The notes: generated by a model not told the origin, from the sequence alone. 32,000 nucleotides of DNA from Candidatus Thalassarchaeaceae archaeon (GCA_045568075.1 JBJLBP010000001.1:780001-812000), one strand, 5' to 3'. Shown: positions 1,964 through 22,189, numbered from the stretch's first letter. Translations and numbers: made by a program.

Positions 1964-4603
1964 TCAATCTCTACGTGCGAGAGCAGCTAGGCTCAGCATA
2001 GAAATCGCTGCTAGGGCGCCAAATCCGGGTAAAATGCCACCATCTGCTTCCTCATTCAGATCACATATACCATCACCATCTGAATCCGCAGGAACACTGT
2101 TTGAGTCGGTTGAAATTGTCAGACATTGAGATTCGGCGTAATCCGACCAGCCATCATTATCGTCATCGAAGTCTGAATTATCGCCTTCGCCGTCTCCGTC
2201 ACTATCTCTATGCTCGAGAGGGTCGAATGGGAAATCATCGAAGACATCGGCGACACCATCGTTATCGTCGTCATCGTCCAATTCGTCACACTGCGAGTCT
2301 CCATCGGCGTTTGTTGGAATTGAATCTAAATCCAATGGATCCGATAAGCAACGCTCTTCGTCACGGTCCTCAAATCCATCACCGTCATCATCACGGTCGG
2401 TATTGTCAGTCTCACCATCACCGTCTGTGTCGATTGGCGCCGAGCCTGCATCGAGAGGGTCGTAGCCGGTAGCGATTTCGTATTCATCGTCCCAACCATC
2501 GCCATCATCGTCTTCATCTGCGCTATTTCCAACGCCATCACCATCGGTATCGTAGACTTCCTCTGCATCGTCCGGGAATGCGTCCTCGTCGTTATCGACA
2601 CCGTCACCGTCGCGATCGCTGTCAGAATTATCACCAATCCCATCTCCATCCATGTCTGCCCATTCTGTGCTATTTAGCGGGAAGATATCAGCAACATCTG
2701 CCACTCCGTCATTATCGTCGTCGGAATCTTGCAAGTTGCAAACCAAATCAGCGTCTGTGTCGAGTGGGACGGACATCAAATCCTTGGAATCTGTTGAGCA
2801 GTTGCCCTCGTCAGAATCGGACCAGCCATCGCCATCATCGTCAGAATCGGAATTATCTCCTACGCCATCAACATCGGTATCCAACCATTCGCTTGCATCC
2901 ATCGGGAATGCATCGTCGAGGTCTGCATAACCATCATCATCATCGTCCGAATCGACGATATCGCAGACCATATCTGAATCGTAATCGGCTGGCACGGACA
3001 TTGCATCACGGGGTTCCGTGCCGCAATTCGCCTCATCTGCATCCGACCATGAATCTCCATCATCATCCAAGTCAGCATTGTCGCCGATGCCGTCGTCATC
3101 CAAATCACCAGTCTCACTAGCATCATTAGGGAATGCGTCATCGACGTCGAGGACGCCATCACCATCATCGTCATCATCGAGAATGCTGCAGATTCTATCT
3201 CCATCGGGGTCATCAGGTATATCCGATTGATTCAGAGGATCCGTCCCACAATCGATTTCATCAACATCGCTCCAGGAATCGTCATCATCGTCGGTGTCTC
3301 CATTATCTCCACGACCGTCTCCATCGGTATCCTTCCATTCGCTTGAATCGAAGGGGAAGTCATCCTCCGTGTCGTTGTAACCGTCATTGTCATCGTCATC
3401 GTCGGTCTCATCGCACACACCATCAGAATCGAAATCGGCCGGTACGCTGCTCGAATCGGTTGTGTTTGAACCACAGATCAACTCTTCTGCATCGGTCCAG
3501 CCATCGTTATCGTCATCCTCATCGACGCCGTCGCAGGTGCCGTCCGAGTCCGTATCGACTGGCATAGAGAATCGATCGGTCGAGTTAGTGCCACAGGCAG
3601 CTTCATCACTATCACTCCAACCATCATCGTCGTCATCCATGTCGAGGAAATTACACATTCCATCGCCATCTGAGTCCGAGGGCGTCGAATCGGAATCAGT
3701 CGAATTCGTGCCGCAAGCCGCCTCTTCTGTATCAGTCCAGCCATCTCCATCATCATCTGAATCTAAAGAATCGCAGGTTCCGTCAGAATCGGTATCCAGC
3801 GGTGTTGATTGGGAATCGGTCGAGTTAGTGCCACAATTCGTTTCATCTCCATCCGACCAACCATCTCCATCATCATCTGTATCGATGGAGTTGCATATTC
3901 CATCTGAGTCAGTATCAGTCGGGATCGAGGAATCATCGTCCGGGTCGGTCCCGCACATCTGCTCCGCAGTATCAGTCCATCCATCACCATCATCATCTGT
4001 ATCGATGAAGTCACAAATGCCGTCTCCGTCCCCATCGCTCGGGATGCTTGAATTGTCATTAGAATCGGTACCACAAGCATCCTCGTCATCATCGTTCCAA
4101 CCATCATTGTCGGAATCGAGTGAAGCCTGAGAGAGGATCCAGGAATCAGTTCCCCAGCCATCTCCATTGGTATTCCCATTCCCATTGACGAAATTCACTG
4201 CTAGGTCGAATGTCACGTTGCCCGAGCCATTAGCCGGAGCTGTCCAATCAACTGTCCATGAGCGCGCATTATCGTTGGAATGAGTCACTTCTCCGCTTGA
4301 GATCTGAGCGTTCGAACCCGGGTTCGAGAAGGAGCCATCATCCGCATCCAGATTGAATCCACCGTTAGAGCCTGAAGGGCCACCGCTACCACCAATAGTC
4401 AGATTGTAGGTGCTATCTGGGGCGTATCCATCGGCTGGCAATCCGCTTAGACTCGGCGTCACCTGATTTGCTCCACCGCCGTGGCAGCTACACCCTGAGG
4501 TCGACGAACCCGTCTTTCCTCCGGACCACCCGAATGCATCCTGCGGTACGGCCAAAACGAGTAGAAGAACGAGTACCATCGATACCTTTCGCTGGGAGGT
4601 CAT
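1964..4603 (-). CDS. Secreted hyper-acidic surface protein: signal peptide, Reeler-like N-domain, about 20 thrombospondin type-3-like Ca-binding repeats, PGF-CTERM anchor
   Basis: N-terminal signal MVLVLLLVLAVPQDAFG. Globular domain carrying GCSCHG...THSN...WTVDWTAP. Iterated DxDxDGxCD / DDDGDGWxD / CGTD units. C-terminal LPGFGALAAISMLSLAALARRD. Confidence 0.85.
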   Translation of the reverse strand: MTSQRKVSMVLVLLLVLAVPQDAFGWSGGKTGSSTSGCSCHGGGANQVTPSLSGLPADGYAPDSTYNLTIGGSGGPSGSNGGFNLDADDGSFSNPGSNAQISSGEVTHSNDNARSWTVDWTAPANGSGNVTFDLAVNFVNGNGNTNGDGWGTDSWILSQASLDSDNDGWNDDDEDACGTDSNDNSSIPSDGDGDGICDFIDTDDDGDGWTDTAEQMCGTDPDDDSSIPTDTDSDGICNSIDTDDDGDGWSDGDETNCGTNSTDSQSTPLDTDSDGTCDSLDSDDDGDGWTDTEEAACGTNSTDSDSTPSDSDGDGMCNFLDMDDDDDGWSDSDEAACGTNSTDRFSMPVDTDSDGTCDGVDEDDDNDGWTDAEELICGSNTTDSSSVPADFDSDGVCDETDDDDDNDGYNDTEDDFPFDSSEWKDTDGDGRGDNGDTDDDDDSWSDVDEIDCGTDPLNQSDIPDDPDGDRICSILDDDDDGDGVLDVDDAFPNDASETGDLDDDGIGDNADLDDDGDSWSDADEANCGTEPRDAMSVPADYDSDMVCDIVDSDDDDDGYADLDDAFPMDASEWLDTDVDGVGDNSDSDDDGDGWSDSDEGNCSTDSKDLMSVPLDTDADLVCNLQDSDDDNDGVADVADIFPLNSTEWADMDGDGIGDNSDSDRDGDGVDNDEDAFPDDAEEVYDTDGDGVGNSADEDDDGDGWDDEYEIATGYDPLDAGSAPIDTDGDGETDNTDRDDDGDGFEDRDEERCLSDPLDLDSIPTNADGDSQCDELDDDDDNDGVADVFDDFPFDPLEHRDSDGDGEGDNSDFDDDNDGWSDYAESQCLTISTDSNSVPADSDGDGICDLNEEADGGILPGFGALAAISMLSLAALARRD
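1967..2029 (-). other. PGF-CTERM archaeosortase (ArtA-type) sorting signal
   Basis: PGF (ccc gga ttt on the minus strand at 2029-2021), then a 15-residue hydrophobic stretch and RRD at the extreme C-terminus. Confidence 0.75.
2039..4108 (-). repeat. Coding tandem-repeat array (TSP type-3-like units of about 37 aa, alternating Cys-pair and FP/EW modules)
   Basis: Plus strand shows NTC trinucleotide periodicity (atc/gtc/gcc/acc), which is antisense of GAT/GAC/GGC/GGT codons. At protein level the unit DxDDDGDGWxDxxExxCGTDxxDxxSxPxDxDxDGxCDxxD repeats throughout. Confidence 0.85.
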
Positions 4604-4635: not shown

Positions 4636-6897
4636 TCACTCTCGCCTGTGCCGTATCGAAATCGTTGCGCCAAGCATAGCTAGTGCAGCCAGAAGGGCGG
4701 GAAACCCAGGAAGTGAATCATCTTCAGGCTCTTCAGGCTCCTCTGGTTCTCCAGTCTGAACATTGTCGTCGATTGAGTCGCAAATTCCGTCTTCATCGAC
4801 ATCGACAGGCATCGACTGGGCATCCATGGGATCGGTGCCACAGGTATTCTCATCTGAGTCGAGCCATCCGTCTCCATCATCATCCCAGTCGGCATTATCG
4901 CCGACTCCGTCATTGTCGTAATCCCCCCACTCTGTCGCATCGTTAGGGAATGCATCTTGTTCGTCCGCTATACCATCACCATCATCGTCGGGGTCTTGCA
5001 CATCGCACATTCCGTCTCCATCACGGTCACGAGGAACAGAGATGCTGTCCAATGGTTCTGATTCGCATACTTCCTCGATTTGGTCAGGCCAGCCGTCTCC
5101 ATCATCATCGGTGTCGGCATTGTCTCCTTGACCATCACCATCGCTGTCGAGCCATTCCTTCTCGTCGTTCGGGAAGACGTCGTCCTCATCAGAGAATCCA
5201 TCCCCGTCGTCATCGTAATCACTGACATCGCAAATTCCGTCGCCATCGAGGTCGGTGGGAGTCGATTGGTAATCCATGTGGTCGCTACCACAGGTTATCT
5301 CTATCGTGTCATGCCAGCCATCATTATCATCATCGTCATCTTCAACCAATGTTGTTTGACAGTCTTCTTCGATCTTATTCGGCATTCCATCGCCATCTGT
5401 GTCTGTGAATGCACATGGGTCATCTGGGAATGAATCGTCACCGTCGTTGACTCCATCGTTATCTCCGTCGAGGTCGAGATAATCGCATACTCCATCACCA
5501 TCGGAATCCATTGGATAGCTGTCCTCGTCCATCGGGTCAGTAGCGCAATCTAATTCCTCACTATCACTGAATCCATCATTATCATCATCGGTGTCGGCAT
5601 TGTCTCCAATACCGTCACCGTCGCTATCGACACTCTCGGTTCCATCGTTCGGGAATTCATCATCCCCATCGTCGATTCCATCGCCGTCATCGTCCGAGTC
5701 CAAATCGTCGCACAGATCGTCACCGTCGCTATCGACCGGGGTCGAGCCAGCATCGTTTGGGTCTGAGCCACAATCTGCTTCAGTCGTGTCTGAGTATCCA
5801 TCGTTATCGTCATCGGAGTCGGCGTTATCGCCTACTCCGTCACCATCAGCGTCAGCTGATTCACTAGAGTCCAGTGGGAAGGCATCGTCCTCATCGTCTA
5901 CGCCATCGTTATCGTCGTCGGGATCGCTGTCGTTAGGAATCCCATCGCCGTCGAAGTCATCGCCCTCAAGGGCATCACAGATGCCATTTGCGTCGGAGTC
6001 AGCGGGCACGTCGTTGCCGTCCAGCGAGTCGGTCCCGCAATCTGCCTCATCGACGTCGGACCATCCGTCGTTATCGTCGTCAAGATCTTCGGTCAAAGTT
6101 GAGGTACCGGTGAAGACGATATTGTCTAGGTATAGCGCCTCTAACGCACTGTTTGAAGAAAATTCAACTTCCAGTATACCGCTCGCGCCGCCAAGCGCGA
6201 GCGTTGCGGTTGTCCAAGTGTCTAGGTAAGCAGAGAAGTCGGAATCAATATCGTAGCCAGAGGTGTTGATGATGTCTGAAGAGGTTGTCGAAGTAACCCA
6301 ACGGATAATCAGATAATCCACCGGGCTCGAGGTCTCGTATCCTGTGTCCTGTAGGAATAAGTCAAGGCTCAATGAATCAGCAGTCACTTGTTCTAGCGCG
6401 AGCGTAGTTATCCCGTCCACATCGGACATCTGGTAACCTTGATCTCCCTCAGAGAAATTACCAACTGTACCTGTGTAATTGACCGTACCGAAATAATCTC
6501 CATCGGTCAATCCAACTCCTCCATTAGACTCGTAATACAGGGTGAATCCCATCTCATTCCCAGTTGTTTGATTATGCGCGACATGAGGTTCATTGGCATT
6601 ATTCCAAAGGTATCGGTCAGAATTTTCGTCACCAGTATCTGTGTATTTCACACTGTCAACTGTGAATGGGTCTTCGAAGGAGGTGTATGCAACGACCACA
6701 TTTGAGGTGCAGCCGGAGACGACAGAATCGGGCAATCCGTCTCCGTCGGTGTCTGTATCAGCGCAGGCATTGTTCGGAAAATCATCGATTGAATCGTCGA
6801 CACCGTCACCATCGCTATCGTCCGCAAGCACGGTCGGAGAGGTCATGAGAAGGAGGAGGGCGATGAGGAGAGTCAGAGGCTTCGCGGTGCGGGTCAT
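4636..6897 (-). CDS. Secreted hyper-acidic surface protein: signal peptide, jelly-roll/CBM-like N-domain, TSP type-3-like repeats, PGF-CTERM anchor (paralogue of the downstream gene)
   Basis: ATG 6897 gives MTRTAKPLTLLIALLLLMTSPTVLADD, a signal peptide. The ORF extension to 6948 starts at TTG and adds a non-signal leader. The repeats match those of the neighbour. The C-terminus is LPGFPALLAALAMLGATISIRHRRE. Only 32 nt separate it from the next gene. Confidence 0.85.
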   Translation of the reverse strand: MTRTAKPLTLLIALLLLMTSPTVLADDSDGDGVDDSIDDFPNNACADTDTDGDGLPDSVVSGCTSNVVVAYTSFEDPFTVDSVKYTDTGDENSDRYLWNNANEPHVAHNQTTGNEMGFTLYYESNGGVGLTDGDYFGTVNYTGTVGNFSEGDQGYQMSDVDGITTLALEQVTADSLSLDLFLQDTGYETSSPVDYLIIRWVTSTTSSDIINTSGYDIDSDFSAYLDTWTTATLALGGASGILEVEFSSNSALEALYLDNIVFTGTSTLTEDLDDDNDGWSDVDEADCGTDSLDGNDVPADSDANGICDALEGDDFDGDGIPNDSDPDDDNDGVDDEDDAFPLDSSESADADGDGVGDNADSDDDNDGYSDTTEADCGSDPNDAGSTPVDSDGDDLCDDLDSDDDGDGIDDGDDEFPNDGTESVDSDGDGIGDNADTDDDNDGFSDSEELDCATDPMDEDSYPMDSDGDGVCDYLDLDGDNDGVNDGDDSFPDDPCAFTDTDGDGMPNKIEEDCQTTLVEDDDDDNDGWHDTIEITCGSDHMDYQSTPTDLDGDGICDVSDYDDDGDGFSDEDDVFPNDEKEWLDSDGDGQGDNADTDDDGDGWPDQIEEVCESEPLDSISVPRDRDGDGMCDVQDPDDDGDGIADEQDAFPNDATEWGDYDNDGVGDNADWDDDGDGWLDSDENTCGTDPMDAQSMPVDVDEDGICDSIDDNVQTGEPEEPEEPEDDSLPGFPALLAALAMLGATISIRHRRE
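4639..4710 (-). other. PGF-CTERM archaeosortase sorting signal
   Basis: PGF (cct ggg ttt on the minus strand at 4710-4702), then a hydrophobic helix and RHRRE at the C-terminus, preceded by an EPEEPEEPED linker. Confidence 0.75.
4714..6093 (-). repeat. Coding tandem-repeat array (TSP type-3-like, supermodule of about 80 aa)
   Basis: Repeated DAFPxDxxEWxDxDGDGxGDNADxDDDGDGWxDxxExxCGxDPxDxxSxPxDxDGDGxCD. An exact 27-mer occurs at 5101-5127 and again at 5581-5607. Confidence 0.85.
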
Positions 6898-7006
6898 GGT
6901 TTGCCAAGAGCGGAGCGATTGAAATAACTCTCGTAGGCGAGGTTGCAAGAAACACGCGAGGGTGAGTGACCGTCAGACTCTTTGACCGAGAGCGGAAGCA
7001 TGACTC

Positions 7007-11300: not shown

Positions 11301-12300
11301 TAATCCGACTGAATTGATGGATTGGTGGGATCAAGCACTCGAGATGGAGCACGAGCTCTACGGCTACCTGCCGTGGCCTCGAGTCGAGAGGGCGGTCTTC
11401 GATGCCCAGATTTCTGCTGGGTGGATGCATTCTGGATATCCTTTCATGGCGCATGACCTGAGCGTTGCTGGTGTGGTAAATTCATCCTACATGTCAGAGA
11501 ACGGCGATTGGGGTATGTTCCACGAATTGGGTCATAATCACCAGTGGATGCCTTCTACTCTTCCAGGAACCACTGAGACTGGATGCAACTTCGCGAGCGT
11601 CTATTTGATGGAGGAGTTGGTTGGGGTAGAGGGTCACGGGGCGGTGGACCCAGCACAGCGAGAGTCGCGTATGCGCGATTACTTCGACGACGGCTCAAAC
11701 ATCGCCAACTGGTCTGTGTGGATAGCCCTCGACACATATCTGATCATCAAGGAGGAATGGGATTGGGACCCGATTACAGAGGCCCTCAGTGTCTACTACA
11801 CCTTGCCCTCCGCCGAAGTTCCTGTAGGCGATACGGAGGAGTTCAACGCATGGGTAATGCACCTCTCTAACGCTACTGGATACAACTTAGCGCCGTATCA
11901 CGCTGCTTGGGGATTCCCACTTACTCAGGACACCTTTGACTCTCTTTCTCATCTTCCAATTTGGGTCGATGACCCACTGCGAGGAGAATATTTCGTTTAC
12001 GATGCCATGCTGCGAAATATCGGTGCCAATAGCACTACTTCGAGCACCGCCGACTTTGCTTGGGAGACCTACGATAACGGCACCAACACCACCCTTACGC
12101 TCTACTGGGGAACCACCGATATGGGCAACCAATCTTGGGTCTGGGGAAATAACGCAAATCTCGGAGATTCCGAAGTCGGTTGGGGTGAGTATGAGGTCAC
12201 CGGTTTATCGAGCGGAACTACCTATTACGCACGGGTGAAGGCTTCGAATGAGGAGCGAGACACCTGGTTCGGGCCAGTGAGTTGGACTACGTCGACTTGA
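8329..12300 (+). CDS. Secreted lipoprotein: five He_PIG-like Ig repeats, an alpha/beta region, an M60-like (enhancin/TCAF-type) zinc metallopeptidase and an FN3-like C-terminal domain
   Basis: Signal plus lipobox-like LLTALMCSSGC. Five roughly 87-aa repeats carry LPDG(I/L)x..(A/T)DGSIxGxPT. An M60-like N-domain pattern is present (STGLYAPPGEVITVSV...ILIGAHTD). The zincin motif is MFHELGHNHQW with a downstream E. The tail TLYWGT...GTTYYARVKASN is FN3-like. Confidence 0.85.
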   Translation: MPTRAQVAILLTALMCSSGCMGLFEPSEELPDILDCAEQPNHPDCIVDPVTEEDCRQDEVFTGDECRWMERPEQLSYGISSISLNVGEEMQALTPSFVGDGPDTWVINPPFPQGISFDRESGVISGSPSEATIEIRHTIVASNAVGSTSTWIDLEVTIEGPKSITYAESILDCELGHQCQLAAPSISGGEPDYWSVDPRLPDGISLLADGSIDGSPTQLGDSNHTITISNEGGSVETAIRIIVLHEAPMGLGYGGNRFILSIGDDVQVVPITTGGRIVSWSVEPPLPDGLQLLQADGSIRGSPTTVQSLTPHRVTATNTGGSISVDVLISVVDIPVSNLIYTPDEYDLTIGDEITVTPTHSGGIPDSWQVEPELPPGFTFDSTNGTISGTATDLQVDWSSFTIWANNTGGSASTSFRIRITSLAPDLISWAQTEYALASNESAFIAVTNNGPAIDSWEIEPALPDGLVIIANGSIEGTPTHNIDWTEFTIWANNTGGSVGLNIWIVVHDLRADQSELLSGLDDADWGGWSSLILPIGKWSFPLGRDTTDSTVVAASHVGRGKMIGLGHESWVTQNHEFNFRAVEWVCGEAANVGLAYGAGFDHWEDELQAEGHSVHLSVTPDDLSQVDCLLDEFWNGHDDDDNLAIEQFLLGGGGVIMGGHAWYWSYSNSDVPHNYPGNKISKITGLMVSSDWGYNDIDFEIPDLMYTPHNAIRGIFADRVDGIELTEEEAAIAYSSISDCTVIVPLDFLEFWTPLRKLVNSTGWTVIPYSTLWSSTGHELGADPVADVILRLEEALTQNLPADELPVHPSHTEFPGEVPSNATRISRTVSINGTQPGLPSNFGYSGARSSLRMSTGLYAPPGEVITVSVSQDVSELGFWILIGAHTDGLWGKDVIKRHSKIYRYWWIENTTTEIGNAFGGPIYAAIPAGSEFGEFDMTISGAVRAPMFVLGETSDFEWIYSERDNPAPWTELVSNNFIMTVPTSEIRNLNNPTELMDWWDQALEMEHELYGYLPWPRVERAVFDAQISAGWMHSGYPFMAHDLSVAGVVNSSYMSENGDWGMFHELGHNHQWMPSTLPGTTETGCNFASVYLMEELVGVEGHGAVDPAQRESRMRDYFDDGSNIANWSVWIALDTYLIIKEEWDWDPITEALSVYYTLPSAEVPVGDTEEFNAWVMHLSNATGYNLAPYHAAWGFPLTQDTFDSLSHLPIWVDDPLRGEYFVYDAMLRNIGANSTTSSTADFAWETYDNGTNTTLTLYWGTTDMGNQSWVWGNNANLGDSEVGWGEYEVTGLSSGTTYYARVKASNEERDTWFGPVSWTTST
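8551..9855 (+). repeat. Five tandem coding repeats of about 261 bp (putative-Ig / He_PIG-like domains)
   Basis: Repeat units begin at LSYG, ITYA, LGYG, LIYT and ISWA. Units 4 and 5 share the exact 17-mer TTCACAATCTGGGCCAA at 9529 and 9790, an offset of 261 nt. Confidence 0.8.
11521..11535 (+). other. HEXXH catalytic zinc-binding motif of the M60-like domain
   Basis: cac gaa ttg ggt cat encodes HELGH (residues 1065-1069). A Glu lies 14 residues after the second His (PGTTE), which fits HEXXH(8-28)E. Confidence 0.8.
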
Positions 12301-13385: not shown

Positions 13386-14663
13386 TCACCTGATAATGTC
13401 CGTGATTCGTGATTGCAATTCAATCTCCCCCTCACTCAAAATGAATGCTGATGCCAATGATTCGGATAGGCCAGCAGGCAATTCGCCCCTATGGTAAATG
13501 ACGAGCAGTGGGTCACCTTCTTCGACAGATTCGCCTACTTGAACCTCGAGGATTAGGCCGACGCAGTGGTCGATTTCGTCGCCAAGAGCGCGTCGGCCGG
13601 AACCGAGTTCGAGGCATGCCCGAGCCACAGTCATCGCCTCGATATCAGCGACCATTCCAGTGGCTTCTGCGAAGACCTCGGTCGAGAGTAGTGTTTCATC
13701 GAGCAGACCGAGTCCGCTCAGGAGTGCGTAATCGGACTCGAGGATCGAAGTGTCTCCACCTTGAGCCTCGACCATCGCACGGAAGCACGCAAGCGCGCTG
13801 CCATCATTCAGAGAATCGTGGATTTTCAGCGCGCCCTCCTCCATATCTGCGGCCAAGCCAGCAGCGGCTAGTAGCAACCCTCCTTGGACGCAAACCAGTT
13901 CCTCCAAATCGTGCGGACCACGACCGCAAAGAGTCTCGACACTCTCGACAATTTCCAGAGCGTTTCCTACAGCGCAGCCCAGGGGCTGGTCCATCGTAGT
14001 CAATACAACTGAGGTAGCAACGCCCATTCCGTTGGCAGCCCCGGCCATCGAGTGTGCAAGTTCCTCTGCCTGTTCGCGCTCGACCATGAAAGCCGCCCGA
14101 CCATATTTGACATCTAGAACCAGAGCGGACAATCCTTCAGCAGTCTTTTTGGAAACGATTGAAGAAGTGATTAGCGGAATCGAAGCCACAGTCTCTGTCA
14201 AGTCTCGCAAAGCGTACATTCGACGGTCGGCCGGGACAAGTGAATCGGTCTGTCCGACCATCACACAACCGATCTTTGCTACTTGCGCACGAACCTCATC
14301 AGTTTCTAGGTCGACTCGAAATCCAGGGATACTCTCCAATTTATCGAGCGTCCCACCAGTATGCCCCAGCCCGCGTCCAGAAATCATAGGCACCTTCGCC
14401 CCGCAAGCAGCAAGAGCGGGGGCCAGAGGAATCGAGACCTTGTCACCGACACCACCCGTCGAATGTTTGTCGACTACGAGGTGCGCCCATTCAGCCGGCC
14501 ATTCGAGTACCTCGCCCGAGTCGCGCATGGCTTCAGTAAGCCGAATAGTCGACTCGCTATCGAGTCCATTCTCGAACACATTTCGTAACCATTCAATGAG
14601 TTCGTCATCGGCTAGAGTTCCGTCCACGACCGCTTTGACCAAACGCCCAATCGGGTCGCTCAT
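13386..14663 (-). CDS. deoA: Thymidine / pyrimidine-nucleoside phosphorylase
   Basis: VVDKHSTGGVGDKVS and ISGRGLGHTGGTLDKLESIPGF are nearly identical to bacterial and human TP motifs. At 425 aa it lacks the N-terminal extension of archaeal AMP phosphorylase. Confidence 0.88.
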   Translation of the reverse strand: MSDPIGRLVKAVVDGTLADDELIEWLRNVFENGLDSESTIRLTEAMRDSGEVLEWPAEWAHLVVDKHSTGGVGDKVSIPLAPALAACGAKVPMISGRGLGHTGGTLDKLESIPGFRVDLETDEVRAQVAKIGCVMVGQTDSLVPADRRMYALRDLTETVASIPLITSSIVSKKTAEGLSALVLDVKYGRAAFMVEREQAEELAHSMAGAANGMGVATSVVLTTMDQPLGCAVGNALEIVESVETLCGRGPHDLEELVCVQGGLLLAAAGLAADMEEGALKIHDSLNDGSALACFRAMVEAQGGDTSILESDYALLSGLGLLDETLLSTEVFAEATGMVADIEAMTVARACLELGSGRRALGDEIDHCVGLILEVQVGESVEEGDPLLVIYHRGELPAGLSESLASAFILSEGEIELQSRITDIIR

Positions 14664-17600
14664 GCCTCGTCCTCGCCGTGTTCATCGCGGAGTTCTTCGA
14701 TGCTCATTCCTTTGTCAAGCATCCATTGGACTTGGTCGCGGTCAAGTTCCTCAAACCCGAAACCATCCAACACAATGGCACCATGAACGCCATCGTCGCG
14801 ACCTTCGGTCCACTCGCGAGTATCGACCGAATCTTCATCGAAGCGTGTACCCTTGAGTATCGCCCGCTCGGCATCGGCATCATCGAATCGGTAACCAGAA
14901 TCATCGATTAGCCGTTCTTCGGTCCTTATCCGTGGCCGTTTGACTAAAGTCAGTCCAGCGCCCGCAAGAGCAATCGCAGCGATAAGTGTCAGTCCCAGAA
15001 GAAACTTAGCTCCTGGAGCAGATAGGGGATTCTCACGGACATTGATGATGCCACCTGTATCGTCGTCATCACCATTGTTCGAATCGCCATCGCCAGTATC
15101 AGAACCACCATCACCATCTCCGGGATCGGTGGTTCCCGTGCCATCATCGCAGCCGAATTGGACACCATCTGCTACGCCGTTATCGTCGACATCATTCGAA
15201 TTCATCGAAGCTGATGGCGCACGCATCACTGATTGAGCGAAGGCTGGCTCATCACCATCGAGAATACAATCATCATCGGTATCACTATCATTGGGGTTTC
15301 CTCCTAGTAAGTACTCATCTAAATTATTCAAACCATCTTCATCCAAATCAAGTGATTGTTCACTCAATGCGGTTCCAAGTATTGCCGCCGAGTGGCGATT
15401 TAATCCATGTTCTATTTCCCAAAAATCGGGTAATAAGTCCCCATCTGAATCTGTTAAACTGTCCAATCGATTCCAATCTTCTTCGAATGATTGTAGGTAT
15501 TCAGAAGTCAATTCCTGATTGTGAATTAAAACTCCCATTTCTCTATTCCTCAAGGCTGCGTTTGAGCCCCAATTCATACTCCCAACGAGAACACTCTCTC
15601 CATCGATTATTGCCCCTTTATTGTGTAGTTTCACAATCGTATCAGATGAGGCCATAATTCTAGCAGTTGTGTCTAGCCCTTGAGTAGCATTCCAATCGGT
15701 GTTGAACATTTGTACAGCATCTCTGATTTCATCATCTTGGTCAACATAAAACCCGTTCAACAATAGACGGACCTTAACTCCTCGAAGCGCTGCTGAATGT
15801 ATTGCTTCAATAATTGGATTTTCGCCGAATCCCCAATACCAATCTAGATCTAGATATTGAACAGAAAGTTCGATCGATGTATCCGCAGAATCAATCATTT
15901 CGATTATCCCATCAACGCAATCATCCGGACAGGTAATCAATCGTAAATCGAATGGCCCTGAATGGTAAACTGGCGGTGTAATTTCCCCATCAAAGCTAGG
16001 CTCTTCCATCACCCAATCAAAAGTTGGAGCATGGTTGTTTGAATGAGCTGAAATGTGTAGATGCATCTGATTCTCATCCCATGCCATTCGCGATAATACC
16101 AATTCTGCGAATGATTGAGAGTTGACGATTACGGACCATTCCCTATTTCCGATTCCATCAGGTGGTAAGCTAGAATCCTTCCAATTGCCAGAGGAAATCC
16201 ATACACTTTCTGAATCTCTAACCGATACCTTGCTGTGAATATACGTGTAAGGTGAACTGATGACGCTTGGATCATCCATCCAGAGAACAGTTGCTCCAGC
16301 ATCGTGAAGAGTTTGTGCGTGTCCACGTTGGTTGTTTTTCGTACTGCTACCATCTAGGATTCCTTCTTCAAGAAGAATGCTTACTGAAACGCCCCTAGAA
16401 ATCGCTTCCAATAGGGCATTGGTCAGGTCTGGGCTCATGGACTGATAGACATGTAAATGGATTGATGAATCCGCTTGATTTATCCAGTGTAATAGATCAT
16501 TGAATCCAGTTTCTGGACTGATAGAAGCGGTTGCTGAGGAGTCCATCTCGGTGGACAAAAATCCACCATCACAAAAAGTCGAGGCACCGATTCTAATCCA
16601 TCTATATTCCCAATCTGATCCAGCATCTGTGTCTGGGTAGTCTCCACAACCGGTCCCTCGCATCAAAATTAGACCGGGAGTGCCATCTCCTGGAACTGAA
16701 ATTGCGGCTCCATTCCAACCATCGATTTCTGCAATCCCGCCTCCGAAGGCTATTGCATCTACAACAGTTCCATCGGGTGCTTTCAATTGCAATGAGCTTC
16801 CTGAATCAACCAGCCATGGCATATTGTTCATGACGACATTTCCATCCAAAGCGGCAATCCCTCCGTCGGAGAGAAGATTTGCTGGGTTCTCAGTTAGGAC
16901 AACCGATTCTCCTGCAGGTATTACCAACTCATTGAAATTCGAAATCCATGGGGTCGTTGAACGGATTCTTTCAACTGTCCAGCCGTTCAGGCTAACTTCT
17001 TCATCTCCAGTATTTGTAATCTCAAACCAATCGTTATCTCTATTTGGGACCTCACTGGGCATAATTCTAGTGAATTTCACATCAAATTCGTTGTCCCAGT
17101 CAGAAGGGGGTGATGGGGGCTGCCAGTGCCACAACATGTTGTTGCTATGCTTACCACTATCTTCTGCAATCAGCAGGCTACCATCATTGAGCACTGCGAG
17201 ATTATCTGGCCCTGCGATATTGTTGACATCACATTGACCGGATGAATAGGTTCCTCCAGAAACCACGGGATCGATTCTATTTACATCCCAATTGTCTACT
17301 ATTTCTAGGCTGTAAATCAATCCGCACCTATTCTCTGATAGTCTAATGTCACCTGAAGAATCGGTCATATCATACCTGATATCTGACATTGCTAGGTATA
17401 GGTAGTCAGGTGCGTTTTCGTTGAATACTACACCTTCCATCTTGTTCCATTCAACAGTTGCACCCAAAGCTGCTGCTGCCTTCCGTGATTCCAAGAATGC
17501 TACACGATTGTCAGCAGCGAATCCAATGTTTCCATCTCCGTCAAGATCGTCGTTGAGCGTATGTTCAGCCCAATCGTTGATTTCTTCATCTGAAATATAC

Positions 17601-19255
17601 GAATTCTGACCTGAGGCATAATCCATTGTCCCAATTCCATCGTATTCATCGATCCATCCTTGGATTGAAGCAGAGTTTGAAGATGCTAATTCCACCCAAA
17701 TCACATCAAATCCAGTTGTAGATGGATTTGTCCCAGCGTCTTGATTGACTTTTGCGGCGTAAAGAGTACCTGCGTCTAAATTCCCTGGCGAATCTGCGAT
17801 GAACTTGAAGAGCCCAGTCCCGTATTCATCATCAGACAGGTAAACTGTCTTCCTGTCTGGCATGACTTGTGCATTCTCATGGGAAAATCTACCCATCGCA
17901 AAATGCTTCTCCAAGGTTGGAGCATTCGTATCAGCATCATCCATCTCGATTATCCAGCCATAATCGTATGGATTCGGATACTCCCCTAGATAATCAGCCA
18001 ACTCTAGTTGGTCATCGTGGTAATTGTAATTTGGATTATTCCAATCAACAGTATTAGAGAAATACAATTCCTCAGACAATAAAGGGGTCCCCCATGGACT
18101 CAAAGAACCAAAGCATAGAACCCAACCTCCATTGATTCCACTGAGATCAAGCATTTTCCCTCCCAGAATATCCCAGCTTCCTTCGAAACTATTCCATTCA
18201 ATGTGAAGTTGACTAACTCCTGCGGGTCGACTTTCCCATGTTGAGTAGAGATAGCCTTCAGTTTCTCCCGAATTTGTTGCAACAAATGCGTTGAAATCAG
18301 GCTTTTCGCTAGTGAATAATAATTCTCCATCGTCTGCTGCATAAATCCCACCAGCAACCTCTCCATTCCCTAGATTGTCACCACTCTGCAACAAGGCCTG
18401 ATAGGTTCCAACAGATGTTCTGACGCCATGCCAGATTTCTGATTGGCTACTAGAAGAAGGGAGTTCTGGGATGTCATCGGGTAAGTCATTCCAGTCAAAT
18501 CCATTGATTACTCCAATCGTGGCTTTGTAAGGGTCGTCAGGATGCATAGAGCTGACAAATAAATTCCCTAGAGAATTCACGTGTAGACCAGTAACTTCTG
18601 CTCCGTCGGGTACCATCATAATTCTCGTCAAATCGGCAGGAGTACCTTGGTCATCCTCTCCACCACCATCTCCTCCAATATTCTCGCTACCCGGAGTTGG
18701 TTGTTCTGAATTAATCCATTCAGAAACTCCATCTGATGGTATCTTTGAAACGCCGTTTGAAGCCTCTCCGGTTGTTACTTCGTGAACCACATTACCTTGG
18801 CTATCTGTTAGGAATAGAGTCTCACCGCCATTATTGATACGAAGAGTTCCGATTTCATTCTCAGCGATTATTGCGTAATCTCCAGCTTCGATGAAATAAG
18901 GGGTTGTTAATTCCTCAAATCCAACCCAACTGCTGGAATTAATCGGATGAGTCCAGCCACCAACGTCAACAATTGTCCATCCTTCTAGACTAATTTCAGA
19001 GGGTCCAGTATTGAGCAACTCCACCCATTCGCCTTGAGGGAAAATACCTTGATCTGATCCATCTGCATTTGGCATGACTTCGTTGATGCAGATGTTGCAA
19101 GATTCTGTGGATTCGGACGACTCAAATCGTGCTGATTCTACTTCGCCATCTAGGAGTTGAGGAGTCATCAATCCCGTTAGCAGCAATGCCATCACGAGCA
19201 GTGCTGTACCCCTAGTTGACCCTCGGTGCATCGCCCGCATCGTTCCTTGCTTCAC
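14660..19255 (-). CDS. Giant membrane-anchored ecto-enzyme: signal, lamin-tail domain, PhoX/DUF839-like phosphatase propeller, second lamin-tail domain, PLD-family domain with two HKD motifs, bacterial-type TSP3 repeats, TM helix and a 93-aa cytoplasmic tail
   Basis: LTD1: CINEVMPNADG...GEWVELLNTGPSEISLEGWTI. PhoX-like: MGRFSHENAQVMPDRKTVYLSDDE...GPDNLAVLNDGSLLIAEDSG. LTD2: FTRIMPSEVPNRDNDWFEITNTGDEEVSLNGWTV. HKD motifs are listed as separate features. TSP3: DSDGDLLPDFWE..DEDGLNNLDEYLLGGNPNDSDTDDD. TM: FLLGLTLIAAIALAGAGLTLV followed by KRPRIR. The start could be GTG 19255, ATG 19240 or ATG 19231. Confidence 0.85.
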   Translation of the reverse strand: MKQGTMRAMHRGSTRGTALLVMALLLTGLMTPQLLDGEVESARFESSESTESCNICINEVMPNADGSDQGIFPQGEWVELLNTGPSEISLEGWTIVDVGGWTHPINSSSWVGFEELTTPYFIEAGDYAIIAENEIGTLRINNGGETLFLTDSQGNVVHEVTTGEASNGVSKIPSDGVSEWINSEQPTPGSENIGGDGGGEDDQGTPADLTRIMMVPDGAEVTGLHVNSLGNLFVSSMHPDDPYKATIGVINGFDWNDLPDDIPELPSSSSQSEIWHGVRTSVGTYQALLQSGDNLGNGEVAGGIYAADDGELLFTSEKPDFNAFVATNSGETEGYLYSTWESRPAGVSQLHIEWNSFEGSWDILGGKMLDLSGINGGWVLCFGSLSPWGTPLLSEELYFSNTVDWNNPNYNYHDDQLELADYLGEYPNPYDYGWIIEMDDADTNAPTLEKHFAMGRFSHENAQVMPDRKTVYLSDDEYGTGLFKFIADSPGNLDAGTLYAAKVNQDAGTNPSTTGFDVIWVELASSNSASIQGWIDEYDGIGTMDYASGQNSYISDEEINDWAEHTLNDDLDGDGNIGFAADNRVAFLESRKAAAALGATVEWNKMEGVVFNENAPDYLYLAMSDIRYDMTDSSGDIRLSENRCGLIYSLEIVDNWDVNRIDPVVSGGTYSSGQCDVNNIAGPDNLAVLNDGSLLIAEDSGKHSNNMLWHWQPPSPPSDWDNEFDVKFTRIMPSEVPNRDNDWFEITNTGDEEVSLNGWTVERIRSTTPWISNFNELVIPAGESVVLTENPANLLSDGGIAALDGNVVMNNMPWLVDSGSSLQLKAPDGTVVDAIAFGGGIAEIDGWNGAAISVPGDGTPGLILMRGTGCGDYPDTDAGSDWEYRWIRIGASTFCDGGFLSTEMDSSATASISPETGFNDLLHWINQADSSIHLHVYQSMSPDLTNALLEAISRGVSVSILLEEGILDGSSTKNNQRGHAQTLHDAGATVLWMDDPSVISSPYTYIHSKVSVRDSESVWISSGNWKDSSLPPDGIGNREWSVIVNSQSFAELVLSRMAWDENQMHLHISAHSNNHAPTFDWVMEEPSFDGEITPPVYHSGPFDLRLITCPDDCVDGIIEMIDSADTSIELSVQYLDLDWYWGFGENPIIEAIHSAALRGVKVRLLLNGFYVDQDDEIRDAVQMFNTDWNATQGLDTTARIMASSDTIVKLHNKGAIIDGESVLVGSMNWGSNAALRNREMGVLIHNQELTSEYLQSFEEDWNRLDSLTDSDGDLLPDFWEIEHGLNRHSAAILGTALSEQSLDLDEDGLNNLDEYLLGGNPNDSDTDDDCILDGDEPAFAQSVMRAPSASMNSNDVDDNGVADGVQFGCDDGTGTTDPGDGDGGSDTGDGDSNNGDDDDTGGIINVRENPLSAPGAKFLLGLTLIAAIALAGAGLTLVKRPRIRTEERLIDDSGYRFDDADAERAILKGTRFDEDSVDTREWTEGRDDGVHGAIVLDGFGFEELDRDQVQWMLDKGMSIEELRDEHGEDEA
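15572..15625 (-). other. Second HKD catalytic motif
   Basis: L-H-N-K-G-A-I-I-D-GESVLV-GSMN (residues 1211-1228), a perfect HxKxxxxDxxxxxxGSxN. Confidence 0.8.
16184..16237 (-). other. First HKD (phospholipase D superfamily) catalytic motif
   Basis: I-H-S-K-V-S-V-R-D-SESVWI-SSGN (residues 1007-1024). The HxKxxxxD part is exact and the GSxN part is degenerate. Confidence 0.7.
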
Positions 19256-19362
19256 GGTTGAACCCTTCGCGCATGCGCGTGCCCGGCCGGCATAGCCGGC
19301 CGTGCCTCAACAAAGCCGACTAGCCAAACCACCGCCGTCGCCGGCGTGTTTGGCGGGCAGGC
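19256..19362 (-). other. GC-rich (75/107 = 70%) highly structured intergenic spacer, possibly a terminator, processing element or miniature repeat element
   Basis: Contains CGGCCGGC-ATA-GCCGGCCG (19284-19302, perfect 8-bp stem). Contains the palindrome GCGCATGCGC (19269-19278). Contains an imperfect hairpin GCCAAAC..GCCG-GCGA-CGGC..GTTTGGC (minus-strand reading, GNRA-type loop) at about 19323-19354. Flanking genes are AT-rich. Confidence 0.5.
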
Positions 19363-22092
19363 TCAATCTTCATCTTCGGATCTCGCGCCGTTGAGGCCGA
19401 TTGCTCCGTAGACCAACAATGAGACGCCTGCGATGTAGAGCACAGCGGTCACTATGTCGATGACCATGGTTCCTTCAAGTTCGCAGTCACCTTCTCCACC
19501 GAAATCAGTCCAGTACATTGGGTCCATATTGTCTAGAACCTTACACTTGAAAGTCTCAGCATCTTCATCAGCAATTTCAGATGCTGTGTGGATTTCGAAT
19601 ACTGGCTTTGCATCTCCTGCCTCAAAGTCAGGGTTAGTCATTCCAGCACCTCTCAAGTCTAGATAGAATCGAGATACAGACTTACCATACATTGCAACAT
19701 TTGTTGTTGGTTCGACCTTGATGTCAACATGAGATCCGAAGTAAACTGGTAATGCACCAGGTAGGACATCTACGAAACTATTGGAAGCAATTAATTTCGC
19801 CTGTATTTGATTTTCAGCAGGGTCCAAATCTACGGTGTGTTCGCGCATCGGTATTCCCTTGAAATCAGTCATTTCACCAGGTACGCTCTCTGCAATAGAA
19901 TAGCCTACTAGATTAACTGAGAATGAGTCATCAGCGTCAGCTATTCCTCCAATTGTTCCAGCAACAACCGTGTTGCTGTTACCGATATTGTCAGTCAGAA
20001 GTCCGTATGTTGCTGCCTCTCTGTGAGGGGCGCGCCATGGTAGGTGTTCGGTCATACCATAGATTTCTCCTTCATCACAGGGATAACCACCATCTGAATC
20101 AGCATCTGCAACAGTGCCATCAGCATTCAACTTGAAGTCACACTGTCCATCTCCATCAGAATTTGTGTATCCTTGCATCAGTCTCTGTCCAAGAGTTTCA
20201 TCATTAACAATACTCATCACATAGACGTCGTAATCTCCAGTGCTCAGACCATCAGGTCTGTCCTCATTCTGAGATCCAAAGTAAGTCATGTTAGTCTCTA
20301 GTTTAACCCACGAACTTTCTTCATCGTAAAGTCCTGTAAGTACTGGATCACTCCACCCATACAACCAATTTTCAATTGGTTGAGTGGTATACGGGCTTGC
20401 TCCATACTGGAATCCGAGTAGAGAACCAATTACAGATTCAAACATGAAGTCCTTCACCCAACTGCGTACAGCCGCAGCATCATTCTCAGATATGTCGTAT
20501 AGTGAAGCAACGTATGCATCATCCCAATCGGCAACAACTCCTCCCATCGCTGGTCCTTCTGCAGTCATTGGTAGTGTTATTCCTGATAATTCATTATACA
20601 TGAAAACACGAGAAAAGCTTTCGTCAGTTAGAGCATAATCAGATGTGTAAAGGATTTCTTGTACCTTCTCAATCGATAAGTCGACAGTTCCTTCATATGA
20701 TCCTTGATTCAAGCCAATTGAGATATATCCTCCAGCAAGTGGTTCTTCTCCACCAAAGGAGTGCTGCCACCATAGGTCACAATCCATCATCCCCGACCCT
20801 CCAACGAGAATCATCGGGAAATTGGTTGGTTGGCCGACCAAGCCAATCCATCCACCTGCATAATCAGATAGAGCAAGTAATTGCGTCAGGCCGATGCCGT
20901 AGTCGAGCATTGTTGTGAAGGCATCAGCGTCGGCTCCTAGAAGGAAGAGAGCAACTCCGGCTAACGGAATTCCATTGTAATCCGACATTGAGAGAAGACC
21001 ATTTGCAATCTCAGCACCTTCAACTCCGAAAATTATATTGTTGAGCGCAACAGCATTTGAGATATCGACACCAGAAACCGCATTCAAGCGCTCGCGAAGG
21101 TCTGTTACTTGAGTCAAATCTGCACCTCCACCCTGTTCTAGCCATTTAGCGCCAGCCATTGCATAAACCGACCAGTCAGTCAGGCTATCCGATGCATCGT
21201 AGCCGTAGAGAGCGGCGCGAACCGGGGTGGTCGCAGCACTCGGCTCTCCAATTCCTGCTGCTAGCATTGGACCGATGTCACAAGTAAGCGCGATACAGAC
21301 TCCAGTTGAGGGGTCGGCTGCATCGTATAGGATGCTAGCGGCGGTCGAAGAGAAATCAGGATCCATTGGGCCCGCTCCGCCGGCCGATGCATTCCATGAA
21401 TCGTAGGCGCCATCCATCACCATGACTGGCGCCATAGCGGCGGCGGTAGCTGCATCGTATCCAGCGGCTTCGAGTTGCGCAGCAACACCATCGATACTGG
21501 CACTAATTTCATCAGCGGCCCACATCGACGGAGCCTTATTTTGCAAATCATTTGCCATCATCTCATTGGCAAAACCAGCCTTGGCGAAAATTTCGCCGTA
21601 AATGATTCCAGTTGCGATGCCAGCTAGTCTCTGGGTGTTGTATAGAATATTCATATTTGTGAATTCAGTTGAACCTGGAAGTGAAGCATGTTCGTTACCC
21701 TCATCATCAGTCCATGTGCAGTTTTCACACCATTCAAAGACGTCATATTCAGAGTAAGTAACGGTTCCAGCCTCTGTATCAAGGCCAAGAAGCGTTCTGT
21801 GGGTTGTAACTTCATAGACGAATGGTCCCATCTTTTCGAATTCGGCATTTACCGCAGAATTTTCTGTTAATTCATCGACATTAGTTATTGAATAACCGAA
21901 GTAAGATCTTTCGGAAGTAGATACGCTCCATTCATCATCATAATCCTCTTCTGAATCATAACCTGCTGCAATAGTATCGCCTACTCCAGCCTCTACCTGA
22001 CCTGCCACAAATGGGGCTAAGGCCATGAAGTTCATTCCGATTAATACAAGTCCTGCAAGTGCGATTGCGGTCGCCTTTTGTCTGTCATCCAT
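19363..22092 (-). CDS. CD36 / scavenger-receptor class B (LIMP-2) family-like membrane protein with N- and C-terminal TM helices and a large insertion
   Basis: The hairpin topology is an N-terminal TM (AIALAGLVLIGMNFMALAPFVAG) plus a C-terminal TM (VIDIVTAVLYIAGVSLLVYGAIGL). Ordered matches to CD36-family motifs are FEKMGPFVYEV, GTVTYSEYDVFEW, EFTNMNIL, ENWLYGWSDPVLTGL, KGIPMREHTV, LPVYFGSHVD, RFYLDLRGAGM and KPVFEIHTASEIADEDAETFK. ATG 22092 has GGAGGT 12 nt upstream. The ORF extension to 22212 overlaps the upstream gene and adds a non-membrane leader. Confidence 0.7.
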   Translation of the reverse strand: MDDRQKATAIALAGLVLIGMNFMALAPFVAGQVEAGVGDTIAAGYDSEEDYDDEWSVSTSERSYFGYSITNVDELTENSAVNAEFEKMGPFVYEVTTHRTLLGLDTEAGTVTYSEYDVFEWCENCTWTDDEGNEHASLPGSTEFTNMNILYNTQRLAGIATGIIYGEIFAKAGFANEMMANDLQNKAPSMWAADEISASIDGVAAQLEAAGYDAATAAAMAPVMVMDGAYDSWNASAGGAGPMDPDFSSTAASILYDAADPSTGVCIALTCDIGPMLAAGIGEPSAATTPVRAALYGYDASDSLTDWSVYAMAGAKWLEQGGGADLTQVTDLRERLNAVSGVDISNAVALNNIIFGVEGAEIANGLLSMSDYNGIPLAGVALFLLGADADAFTTMLDYGIGLTQLLALSDYAGGWIGLVGQPTNFPMILVGGSGMMDCDLWWQHSFGGEEPLAGGYISIGLNQGSYEGTVDLSIEKVQEILYTSDYALTDESFSRVFMYNELSGITLPMTAEGPAMGGVVADWDDAYVASLYDISENDAAAVRSWVKDFMFESVIGSLLGFQYGASPYTTQPIENWLYGWSDPVLTGLYDEESSWVKLETNMTYFGSQNEDRPDGLSTGDYDVYVMSIVNDETLGQRLMQGYTNSDGDGQCDFKLNADGTVADADSDGGYPCDEGEIYGMTEHLPWRAPHREAATYGLLTDNIGNSNTVVAGTIGGIADADDSFSVNLVGYSIAESVPGEMTDFKGIPMREHTVDLDPAENQIQAKLIASNSFVDVLPGALPVYFGSHVDIKVEPTTNVAMYGKSVSRFYLDLRGAGMTNPDFEAGDAKPVFEIHTASEIADEDAETFKCKVLDNMDPMYWTDFGGEGDCELEGTMVIDIVTAVLYIAGVSLLVYGAIGLNGARSEDED

Positions 22093-22189
22093 AGTGCTCA
22101 CTCTACCTCCCCACGTGTGCGTATATGGGATAAGCGATTCTATCCATACGAACTGACAATATCTTCGTTTGAGATTTTGATTCGACGCC

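Follow-up and report, generated by a model that had tools for sequence, protein, structure and literature searches.

A membrane-anchored surface protein of Marine Group IIb archaea combining lamin-tail, PhoX-like and phospholipase D-like domains

We analyzed a 32,000-nucleotide (nt) stretch of the genome of a Candidatus Thalassarchaeaceae archaeon (GCA_045568075.1, JBJLBP010000001.1:780001-812000; hereafter the window, in which all positions are numbered from the first letter) and uncovered on its minus strand a gene for a 1531-amino-acid (aa) protein, which we read as an ecto-enzyme with a type-I membrane anchor, belonging to the Marine Group IIb archaea (Thalassarchaeaceae). The chain runs from a hydrophobic N-terminal signal through a lamin-tail domain (LTD), a PhoX-like propeller, a second LTD and a phospholipase D (PLD) module with two HxKxxxxD (HKD) motifs to an acidic stalk, one transmembrane helix and a 93-aa tail. 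We regard this architecture, with intact catalytic motifs in both enzyme modules, as practically certain, and a role of the protein in scavenging organic phosphorus as probable. LTD-bearing ecto-phosphoesterases, PhoX, HKD enzymes and the logic of combining a nuclease with a phosphatase as separate enzymes are known already; what sets this protein apart is the fusion of both steps on one anchored chain, together with a documented polymorphism in which an entire domain behaves as a cassette.

Architecture and catalytic modules

The open reading frame (ORF) begins with GTG, although ATG at codons 6 and 9 could shift the true start by a few residues. It is not a chance reading, since full-length orthologues at 63-96% identity, all of them from Candidatus Poseidoniales/Thalassarchaeaceae, make up about 24 clusters. 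An initial annotation of the window, made from the sequence alone, had called this ORF and its LTD, PhoX and PLD domains in the above order, and the calls hold up: in the whole protein all three families score far over their Pfam gathering thresholds (PLDc_2 in two copies, 4e-40; LTD in two copies, 6e-33; PhoX PF05787, 1.4e-28). The domain borders (Table 1) were placed by running Pfam on separate segments of the protein, and in these isolated segments both copies of the lamin-tail family PF00932 again exceed the gathering score of 34.3, reaching 67.8 and 55.3 bits. The same annotation had not recognized the combination as a described enzyme. Indeed, no characterized enzyme with this architecture was found: public records of the orthologues bear automatic names only (“hypothetical”, “DUF839 domain-containing” or “phospholipase D-like domain-containing”), and the literature searched holds no description of the protein, a Poseidoniales PLD having merely been used in a PLD survey (PMC12242099).

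As to the module between the two LTDs, its Pfam match to PF05787 (aa 374-706) scores 100.8-104.9 bits against a gathering score of 24 (7.9e-30 on the isolated segment), and it matches the PhoX of Pseudomonas fluorescens (PfPhoX; 3zwu/4amf) at 1.6e-10 as a single sequence and at 2.7e-25 as a family profile. Its motif residues are C381, E395/E396, E460, D476, D684/N685 and E698/D699, and in the alignment C381 corresponds to PfPhoX C179 in NCxxGxTPWGT, E395/396 to the E193/194 pair of CEE, E460 to E273 in GRFxHEN and D476 to D292 in DDE. In PfPhoX these four sites are reported to be the Cys and the acidic metal ligands of the enzyme (Yong et al. 2014). Across 33 sequences spanning 30-96% identity C381, E395/396, E460 and D476 are invariant, and the FSHENA, GPDNL and AEDSG motifs quoted in the initial annotation are present at invariant or near-invariant alignment columns. 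The AlphaFold (AF2) model of the module, with a predicted local distance difference test score (pLDDT) of 87.8 and a predicted template-modelling score of 0.90, retrieves 4a9v and 3zwu as its top Foldseek matches at 1e-15, the next match, at 7e-6, being nine orders worse.

The order of its blades is not collinear with that of classical PhoX, and the module is, as judged from these alignments, circularly permuted: the blade with the signature LTRIxxxPxGAEVTG..HP comes first (aa 205-262) and corresponds in the alignment to residues 501-551, which form the final blade of PfPhoX. In a comparison that took in P0101-P0110, P0112 and P0121, a hidden Markov model of this blade places it at the N-terminus in the 1531-aa protein as well as in PhoX proteins of haloarchaea and stand-alone homologues from archaea; in the tandem double-PhoX proteins of bacteria (P0101-P0110), it follows immediately on every PDN..ED motif. 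These tandem proteins look like intermediates of a circular permutation by duplication and then truncation, so that putative tandem-duplicate stages of this propeller may be retained among living sequences. The permutation puts the missing blade at the N-terminus of the module and thereby accounts for Pfam covering only positions 157-454 of the 515 in the PF05787 profile; when the segment with this blade was scanned alone, Pfam did not detect it at E<=10. The module shares with PfPhoX (3zwu/4a9v), an Fe3+/Ca2+ alkaline phosphatase, the six-bladed propeller and the NCxxGxTPWGT, CEE, GRFxHEN and DDE motifs, and differs from it in blade order, in an identity of ~18-19% and in being an internal domain without a twin-arginine signal, whereas PfPhoX is a free periplasmic enzyme.

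The PLD module displays the pattern HxKxxxxD(x6)GSxN twice in one chain, as HSKVSVRDSESVWISSGN at aa 1007 and as HNKGAIIDGESVLVGSMN at aa 1211, and the two 54-nt ranges that had been given for the HKD motifs (16184-16237 and 15572-15625) contain exactly these motifs with the downstream GSxN. On alignment both HKD motifs are intact, as are the Cys/Glu/Asp motif residues of the PhoX module. PLDc_2 matches two stretches with 137 bits against a gathering score of 27, and the AF2 model of LTD2 plus PLD (pLDDT 87.8) recovers PLD3/PLD4, the bacterial PLD 7e0m, PLD1/2 and vaccinia F13 in Foldseek, all at 1e-17 to 1e-19. As the initial annotation had proposed to check by structure prediction, the AlphaFold models (pLDDT 88) resemble solved PhoX and PLD3/PLD4-type structures; on the predicted structure the PLD fold of the module is certain, and the fold does not settle the substrate class. 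The PLD family profile, when run against the PDB, reaches the Nuc endonuclease at 8e-17, Zucchini at 1e-12 and NucT at 5e-11, the sole phospholipase being 7e0m at 1e-8, and the best NCBIfam and PADLOC models for the two halves are the PLD nucleases DrmC, NucT, DpdK and Mokosh, all below cut-off. By this relative ranking the nearest branch would be that of the Nuc/NucT/Zucchini/DrmC nucleases; we do not file the module under any nuclease family because all curated models score well below their cut-offs.

Several known systems illuminate this assignment. Nuc (1byr), NucT (6ehi) and Zucchini/MitoPLD (4ggj) are the closest solved proteins by profile, each PLD half corresponding approximately to one of their subunits; they are homodimers of ~155-200 aa with one HKD each, whereas here the two halves lie in one chain. 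PLD3 and PLD4 are lysosomal single-stranded nucleic-acid 5' exonucleases. They provide the best fold match (2e-19; template-modelling score about 0.62-0.68 on the target) and resemble the archaeal protein in their compact two-HKD build and in the single transmembrane helix that keeps them at the non-cytosolic face of a membrane. Unlike it, they are eukaryotic, have a type II N-terminal anchor and no LTD or PhoX, and are only 15-18% identical, and the fold match to them is no better than that to lipid PLDs. DrmC of the DISARM system scores highest among the NCBIfam and PADLOC models for either PLD half; it differs in being cytoplasmic, in having a single HKD and in belonging to a five-gene defence operon, none of whose other members is found here. 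We rejected an identity of the protein as a DISARM DrmC defence component on its sub-threshold score and the lack of partner genes nearby; neither DISARM nor Dpd or Mokosh partners occur among the neighbours of the gene.

Distribution and exchange of the PhoX module

In a survey that took a single genome from each species, 327 genomes had a relative of the LTD2-PLD part, and the comparisons of loci rest on the 80 species loci kept. The PhoX insert is present in 26 of these 80. In 22 close orthologues (62-80% identical in LTD2-PLD) LTD1 is joined directly to LTD2, precisely without PhoX, and more distant orthologues (~50% identity, ~1600 aa) have five to six LTDs and no PhoX. The junctions of the insert are exact: three PhoX-less loci (L018, L020 and L037) keep a TPTDL/QPSEW scar composed of the first and last residues that flank the module in their PhoX-bearing sisters, which indicates precise deletion. 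The initial annotation had seen each enzyme as preceded by its own LTD. The order of domains stands, but the pairing into two LTD-enzyme units does not, for this is a conserved LTD-LTD-PLD protein with PhoX inserted between the LTDs. Since the PhoX module is optional and many close orthologues lack it, the PLD core can presumably work without it.

Neighbour-joining trees, computed without support values, disagree in topology between PhoX and PLD, and two mosaic alleles display the exchange at the nucleotide level. In L045 (4238-8827 compared with L026 and L050), 2.6 kb from the gene start to ~300 nt into LTD2 are 97-100% identical to L026, whereas the flanks are only 60-70% identical to L026 and ~90% identical to the PhoX-less L050. 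In L040 the flanks are 95-99% identical to the PhoX-less L043, and LTD1 plus PhoX come from another lineage. L040 is not a chimeric contig, because its allele was recovered in independent assemblies: one Logan assembly carries it at 99.7-100% over 11 kb and a second has the identical protein with the same downstream genes, making three assemblies in all (L040/L091/L092). Recombination is concentrated in the 5' two thirds of the gene among genomes that are otherwise 95-99% identical. Moreover, the module also occurs at another locus, beside the cysteinyl-tRNA synthetase gene, where a second surface protein, P0059 (L006 2210-6541), carries in this order an LTD, a guanine-deaminase-like amidohydrolase and a PhoX module at 72% identity, and the PhoX of P0059 nests inside the PLD-linked PhoX clade. 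As read from these sequence comparisons, the PhoX module is a facultative insert that appears to have been gained, lost and exchanged between species by recombination. On this reading the locus is a clean case of gene flow at the level of domains: an entire catalytic domain has been inserted, precisely deleted and replaced by recombination.

When 1.8 billion representative sequences were searched exhaustively with HMMER, no second lineage combining PhoX and PLD emerged. The search did return stand-alone PhoX relatives of up to 61% identity, one of which adjoins archaeal actin-like genes. LTD plus PLD without PhoX is a wider, uncharacterized architecture, some members of which have two PLD units or CARDB or PKD domains; in six more distant LTD-PLD proteins the only partners are CARDB, PKD and Ig domains or a second PLD unit, and these provide no clue to the substrate. 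Several such distant proteins (P0156, P0165, P0175 and P0184) contain two complete PLD units, made up of four PLDc_2 halves. The number of LTD copies across the family ranges from 1 to 6 (L056-L058; L067-L089 among the loci compared).

Proposed function and competing explanations

We propose that an LTD-PLD core acquired, in this lineage, a phosphomonoesterase propeller of the PhoX (Fe/Ca) type between its first two LTDs, and that the two enzymes might act in succession. The core occurs in every Poseidoniales locus examined and comprises lamin-tail domains, a compact putative phosphodiesterase of the PLD superfamily with two HKD motifs, a long acidic stalk, one transmembrane helix and a conserved cytoplasmic tail. 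The stalk would hold the catalytic head off the membrane; the PLD would cut extracellular nucleic acid or other phosphodiesters to phosphorylated mono- and oligonucleotides; the neighbouring PhoX would strip the terminal phosphate; phosphate and nucleosides would be imported; and a presumably co-transcribed cytoplasmic thymidine phosphorylase would split the (deoxy)nucleosides. A sequential surface machine, phosphodiesterase first and monoesterase second, had been suggested in the initial annotation and is plausible. That nucleic acid is the substrate we consider about evenly balanced against the other candidates, and the fuller proposal, in which a Nuc-type PLD and then PhoX act on extracellular nucleic acids so that phosphate and nucleosides are harvested at the cell surface, has in our judgment an even chance of being right.

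This harvesting model is the best supported one because of the phosphorylase context, the affinity of the PLD for the Nuc type, the nucleobase-deaminase-like second partner of the PhoX module and the association of LTDs with nucleases. With regard to the first, the start codon of the thymidine phosphorylase gene overlaps the stop codon of the 1531-aa gene (ATGA), so that the two are probably coupled in translation, and an LTD-PLD surface protein lies beside thymidine phosphorylase in all loci examined across Poseidoniales. The gene block is constant, comprising TctA, (the CD36-like gene), the LTD-PLD gene, thymidine phosphorylase and an acyltransferase, and the pairing of the PLD gene with the phosphorylase is kept in orthologues down to ~38% identity, where genes for an HD-phosphohydrolase, GMP synthase and PurE are nearby. 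With regard to the last, LTDs partner extracellular nucleases such as ExeM (PMC6085458; PMC8289736), which degrades extracellular DNA (eDNA) and needs its LTD for full activity (PMC6085458). ExeM of Shewanella, Xds of Vibrio cholerae and NucH are likewise secreted or envelope-associated, with an N-terminal LTD, a phosphoesterase domain and a C-terminal hydrophobic anchor; they differ in being bacterial, in using an endonuclease/exonuclease/phosphatase (EEP) fold with oligonucleotide-binding (OB) folds instead of an HKD PLD, and in lacking a phosphomonoesterase module. The eDNA pathways of Shewanella and of DNA degraders from marine sediment (PMC8289736) follow the same proposed logic of phosphodiesterase, phosphomonoesterase and nucleoside catabolism, but they do so with activities on separate proteins, an extracellular nuclease and a phosphatase or nucleotidase, whereas here there is one anchored polypeptide with a swappable phosphatase.

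Several observations weigh against this proposal. Close relatives are syntenic over ~20 kb, so that the linkage to the phosphorylase may partly reflect general synteny. Classical PhoX is exported by the twin-arginine (Tat) route, and PF05787 contains paralogues that are not bona fide PhoX (PMC12594817); a search for a Tat signal at the N-terminus (MKQGTMRAMHRGSTRGTALLV) found no RR motif. The fold search cannot separate nuclease from lipid PLDs, and the curated nuclease equivalogs remain far under their cut-offs (DrmC with 82.5 bits against 133, NucT models with 24-50 bits against 211-351, the 50 bits being set against 297). The protein and its ectodomain are extremely acidic (265 D+E against 74 K+R), an unusual composition for a protein that binds nucleic acids; the window's other surface proteins are equally acidic. 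Finally, the gene immediately upstream has a CD36-family signature, which favours lipids. CD36 is a scavenger-receptor family typical of eukaryotes and a lipid scavenger.

The main rival is a harvester of phosphorus from lipids or small diesters, in which the PLD would be a true phospholipase or glycerophosphodiesterase acting on phospholipids of lysed plankton or of vesicles, PhoX would dephosphorylate phosphatidic acid or the phospho-headgroups, and the CD36-like protein would import the lipid products. We consider this rather unlikely. It gains from the CD36 match of the upstream protein (36.5 bits against a gathering score of 26.5), which has a transmembrane helix near each end as in the CD36 topology, from a cardiolipin-synthase model that aligns over both HKD halves at 6e-11, from 7e0m and PLD1/2 among the top fold matches, and from relatives named “cardiolipin synthase-like” by JGI. 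Yet the CD36 match spans only 65 residues (aa 102-167), and the protein found no match among PDB sequences; the gene is confined to the clade with PLD-gene forms of 1000-1530 aa and absent from more distant orthologous loci, which still keep PLD and thymidine phosphorylase. Furthermore, nucleases rank well ahead of the phospholipase in the sequence profiles, and the second PhoX partner is nucleobase-deaminase-like, not lipid-related. The cardiolipin-synthase models themselves are below cut-off (TIGR04265 with 41.9 bits against 290, ClsB with 27 against 281).

It is also conceivable, if distinctly improbable, that this is a variable surface protein with a non-nutritional role in envelope remodelling or biogenesis, particle adhesion or surface protection (e.g., degradation of foreign DNA), catalysis being secondary and the allelic dimorphism reflecting diversifying selection, for instance by viruses that use the protein as a receptor. 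The presence of the gene in the 327 species genomes with a conserved cytoplasmic tail, the varying number of LTDs, the strong divergence of the N-terminal two thirds where flanks are 95-99% identical, and the origin of the closest PLD models (DrmC, DpdK and Mokosh) in defence systems would fit such a role. Against it speak the absence of partners of those defence systems nearby, the strict conservation of the catalytic residues of both enzymes, the long stalk, which puts the PLD far from the cell's own membrane, and an operon partner that is a catabolic nucleoside phosphorylase. A more radical alternative, that one or both catalytic modules are mere ligand-binding domains and the fusion enzyme is only nominal, we hold to be very improbable. 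The many uncharacterized paralogues within PF05787 (PMC12594817), the Pfam match limited to part of the profile and the lack of a Tat signal for cofactor-loaded export could be read in this way. However, the partial coverage is accounted for by the circular permutation, and all metal-ligand motif residues that can be aligned, like the two HKD triads, stay invariant over 30-96% identity.

Beyond the harvest of nucleic acids, the circularly permuted PhoX might be a self-contained cassette in a modular phosphorus-harvesting head on a conserved surface scaffold. Homologous recombination would move it among species and among LTD surface enzymes (PLD, guanine-deaminase-like), giving alleles with and without PhoX in nearly identical genomes; the cassette would tune how well each population strips phosphate from eDNA to the local phosphorus regime, and the physical coupling of diesterase and monoesterase would allow substrate channelling at the cell surface. 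This we offer tentatively, as a possibility that is doubtful as a whole. Few archaea of the plankton are as abundant as those of Marine Group II, which are uncultured, and the literature searched describes no role for them in the turnover of dissolved organic phosphorus or eDNA. If the proposal is true, a surface PLD-PhoX enzyme tied to nucleoside catabolism would be a concrete route by which they remineralize nucleic-acid phosphorus. The coexistence of forms with and without PhoX would be a natural experiment, in which a link to phosphate or iron limitation is testable in ocean metagenomes.

Feature coordinates, stalk, tail and neighbouring genes

Table 1. Features of the gene, its product and the adjoining genes, in positions of the window
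Feature	Position	Strand	Evidence
Whole gene, surface-anchored LTD-PhoX-LTD-PLD protein, 1531 aa	14660..19255	-	ORF call, Pfam domains, orthologues at 63-96% identity
N-terminus (aa 1-36) with a basic region and a hydrophobic stretch, signal or anchor of Sec type lacking an RR motif	19148..19255	-	Hydropathy; sequence MKQGTMRAMHRGSTRGTALLVMALLLTGL
Lamin-tail domain 1, aa 50-163	18767..19108	-	Pfam LTD 1.3e-18, isolated segment
PhoX-like six-bladed propeller, apparently circularly permuted, module aa 205-722	17090..18643	-	Pfam, profile against PDB, AF2, Foldseek
Lamin-tail domain 2, aa 725-837	16745..17083	-	Pfam LTD 9.8e-15, isolated segment
PLD half 1, aa 921-1055	16091..16495	-	Pfam PLDc_2 2.2e-16
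HKD motif of half 1, HSKVSVRD, aa 1007-1014	16214-16237	-	H/K/D invariant in 36 family members
PLD half 2, aa 1117-1261	15473..15907	-	Pfam PLDc_2 1.3e-24
HKD motif of half 2, HNKGAIID, aa 1211-1218	15602-15625	-	At least 90% conserved in 36 family members
Acidic Ca-loop-like repeats and Gly/Asp-rich stalk, aa 1266-1410	15026..15460	-	38 D+E against 3 K+R
Single transmembrane helix, aa 1418-1438, FLLGLTLIAAIALAGAGLTLV followed by KRPRIR	14942..15004	-	Hydropathy
Cytoplasmic tail, 93 aa, no known family	14663..14941	-	Conserved among orthologues
Thymidine/pyrimidine-nucleoside phosphorylase, downstream	13386..14663	-	NCBIfam NF004490, 465 bits against a cut-off of 269
CD36-like protein, 949 aa, upstream	19363-22212	-	Pfam 2.7e-9, 36.5 bits against a gathering score of 26.5

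The hydropathy of the N-terminus peaks at aa 17-35. At the other end of the protein, the stalk displays loops of the D-x-D-x-D-G kind, visible by eye only (DSDGDLLPDFWE, DLDEDGLNNLDE and DSDTDDDCILDGDE). The bacterial-type TSP3 repeats that the initial annotation had placed here were not recovered: from the stalk to the C-terminus (aa 1262-1531) no Pfam family is matched even at E<=10, neither TSP3 nor TSP3_bac (PF18884). The transmembrane helix and the tail of exactly 93 aa, in turn, are as that annotation described them. The tail has the consensus ILxGT...LD..F..W....VQ..LDxGWTxEQL, with 52-96% identity across loci; it lacks a Pfam match, and neither the tail nor the stalk is similar to other proteins of the window. 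Its conservation suggests an intracellular partner or a signalling role.

With a helix followed by this tail, the 1531-aa protein departs from the PGF-CTERM/archaeosortase pattern, in which a PGF motif, a transmembrane helix and a short basic tail make up the very C-terminus. Two further minus-strand proteins of the window (1964..4603 and 4636..6948) have TSP3_bac repeats and end in LPGF(G/P)AL, a transmembrane helix and RR(D/E), a C-terminus that resembles a PGF-CTERM archaeosortase signal, so that their predicted type of anchor differs from that of the 1531-aa protein. These two are also very acidic, with 278 D+E against 17 K+R in the former and 233 against 15 in the latter.

The CD36-like gene and the ORF are 107 nt apart, and between them, at about 19290-19310, lies a G+C-rich hairpin (GGCCGGCTATGCCGGCC). 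As a possible terminator, this hairpin would make the 1531-aa gene and the thymidine phosphorylase gene a transcription unit of their own. On the opposite strand, at 8329-12300 (+), is encoded a secreted 1323-aa M60/enhancin-like peptidase with He_PIG Ig domains, which is syntenic in all close relatives and thus marks the region as a cluster of large surface hydrolases.

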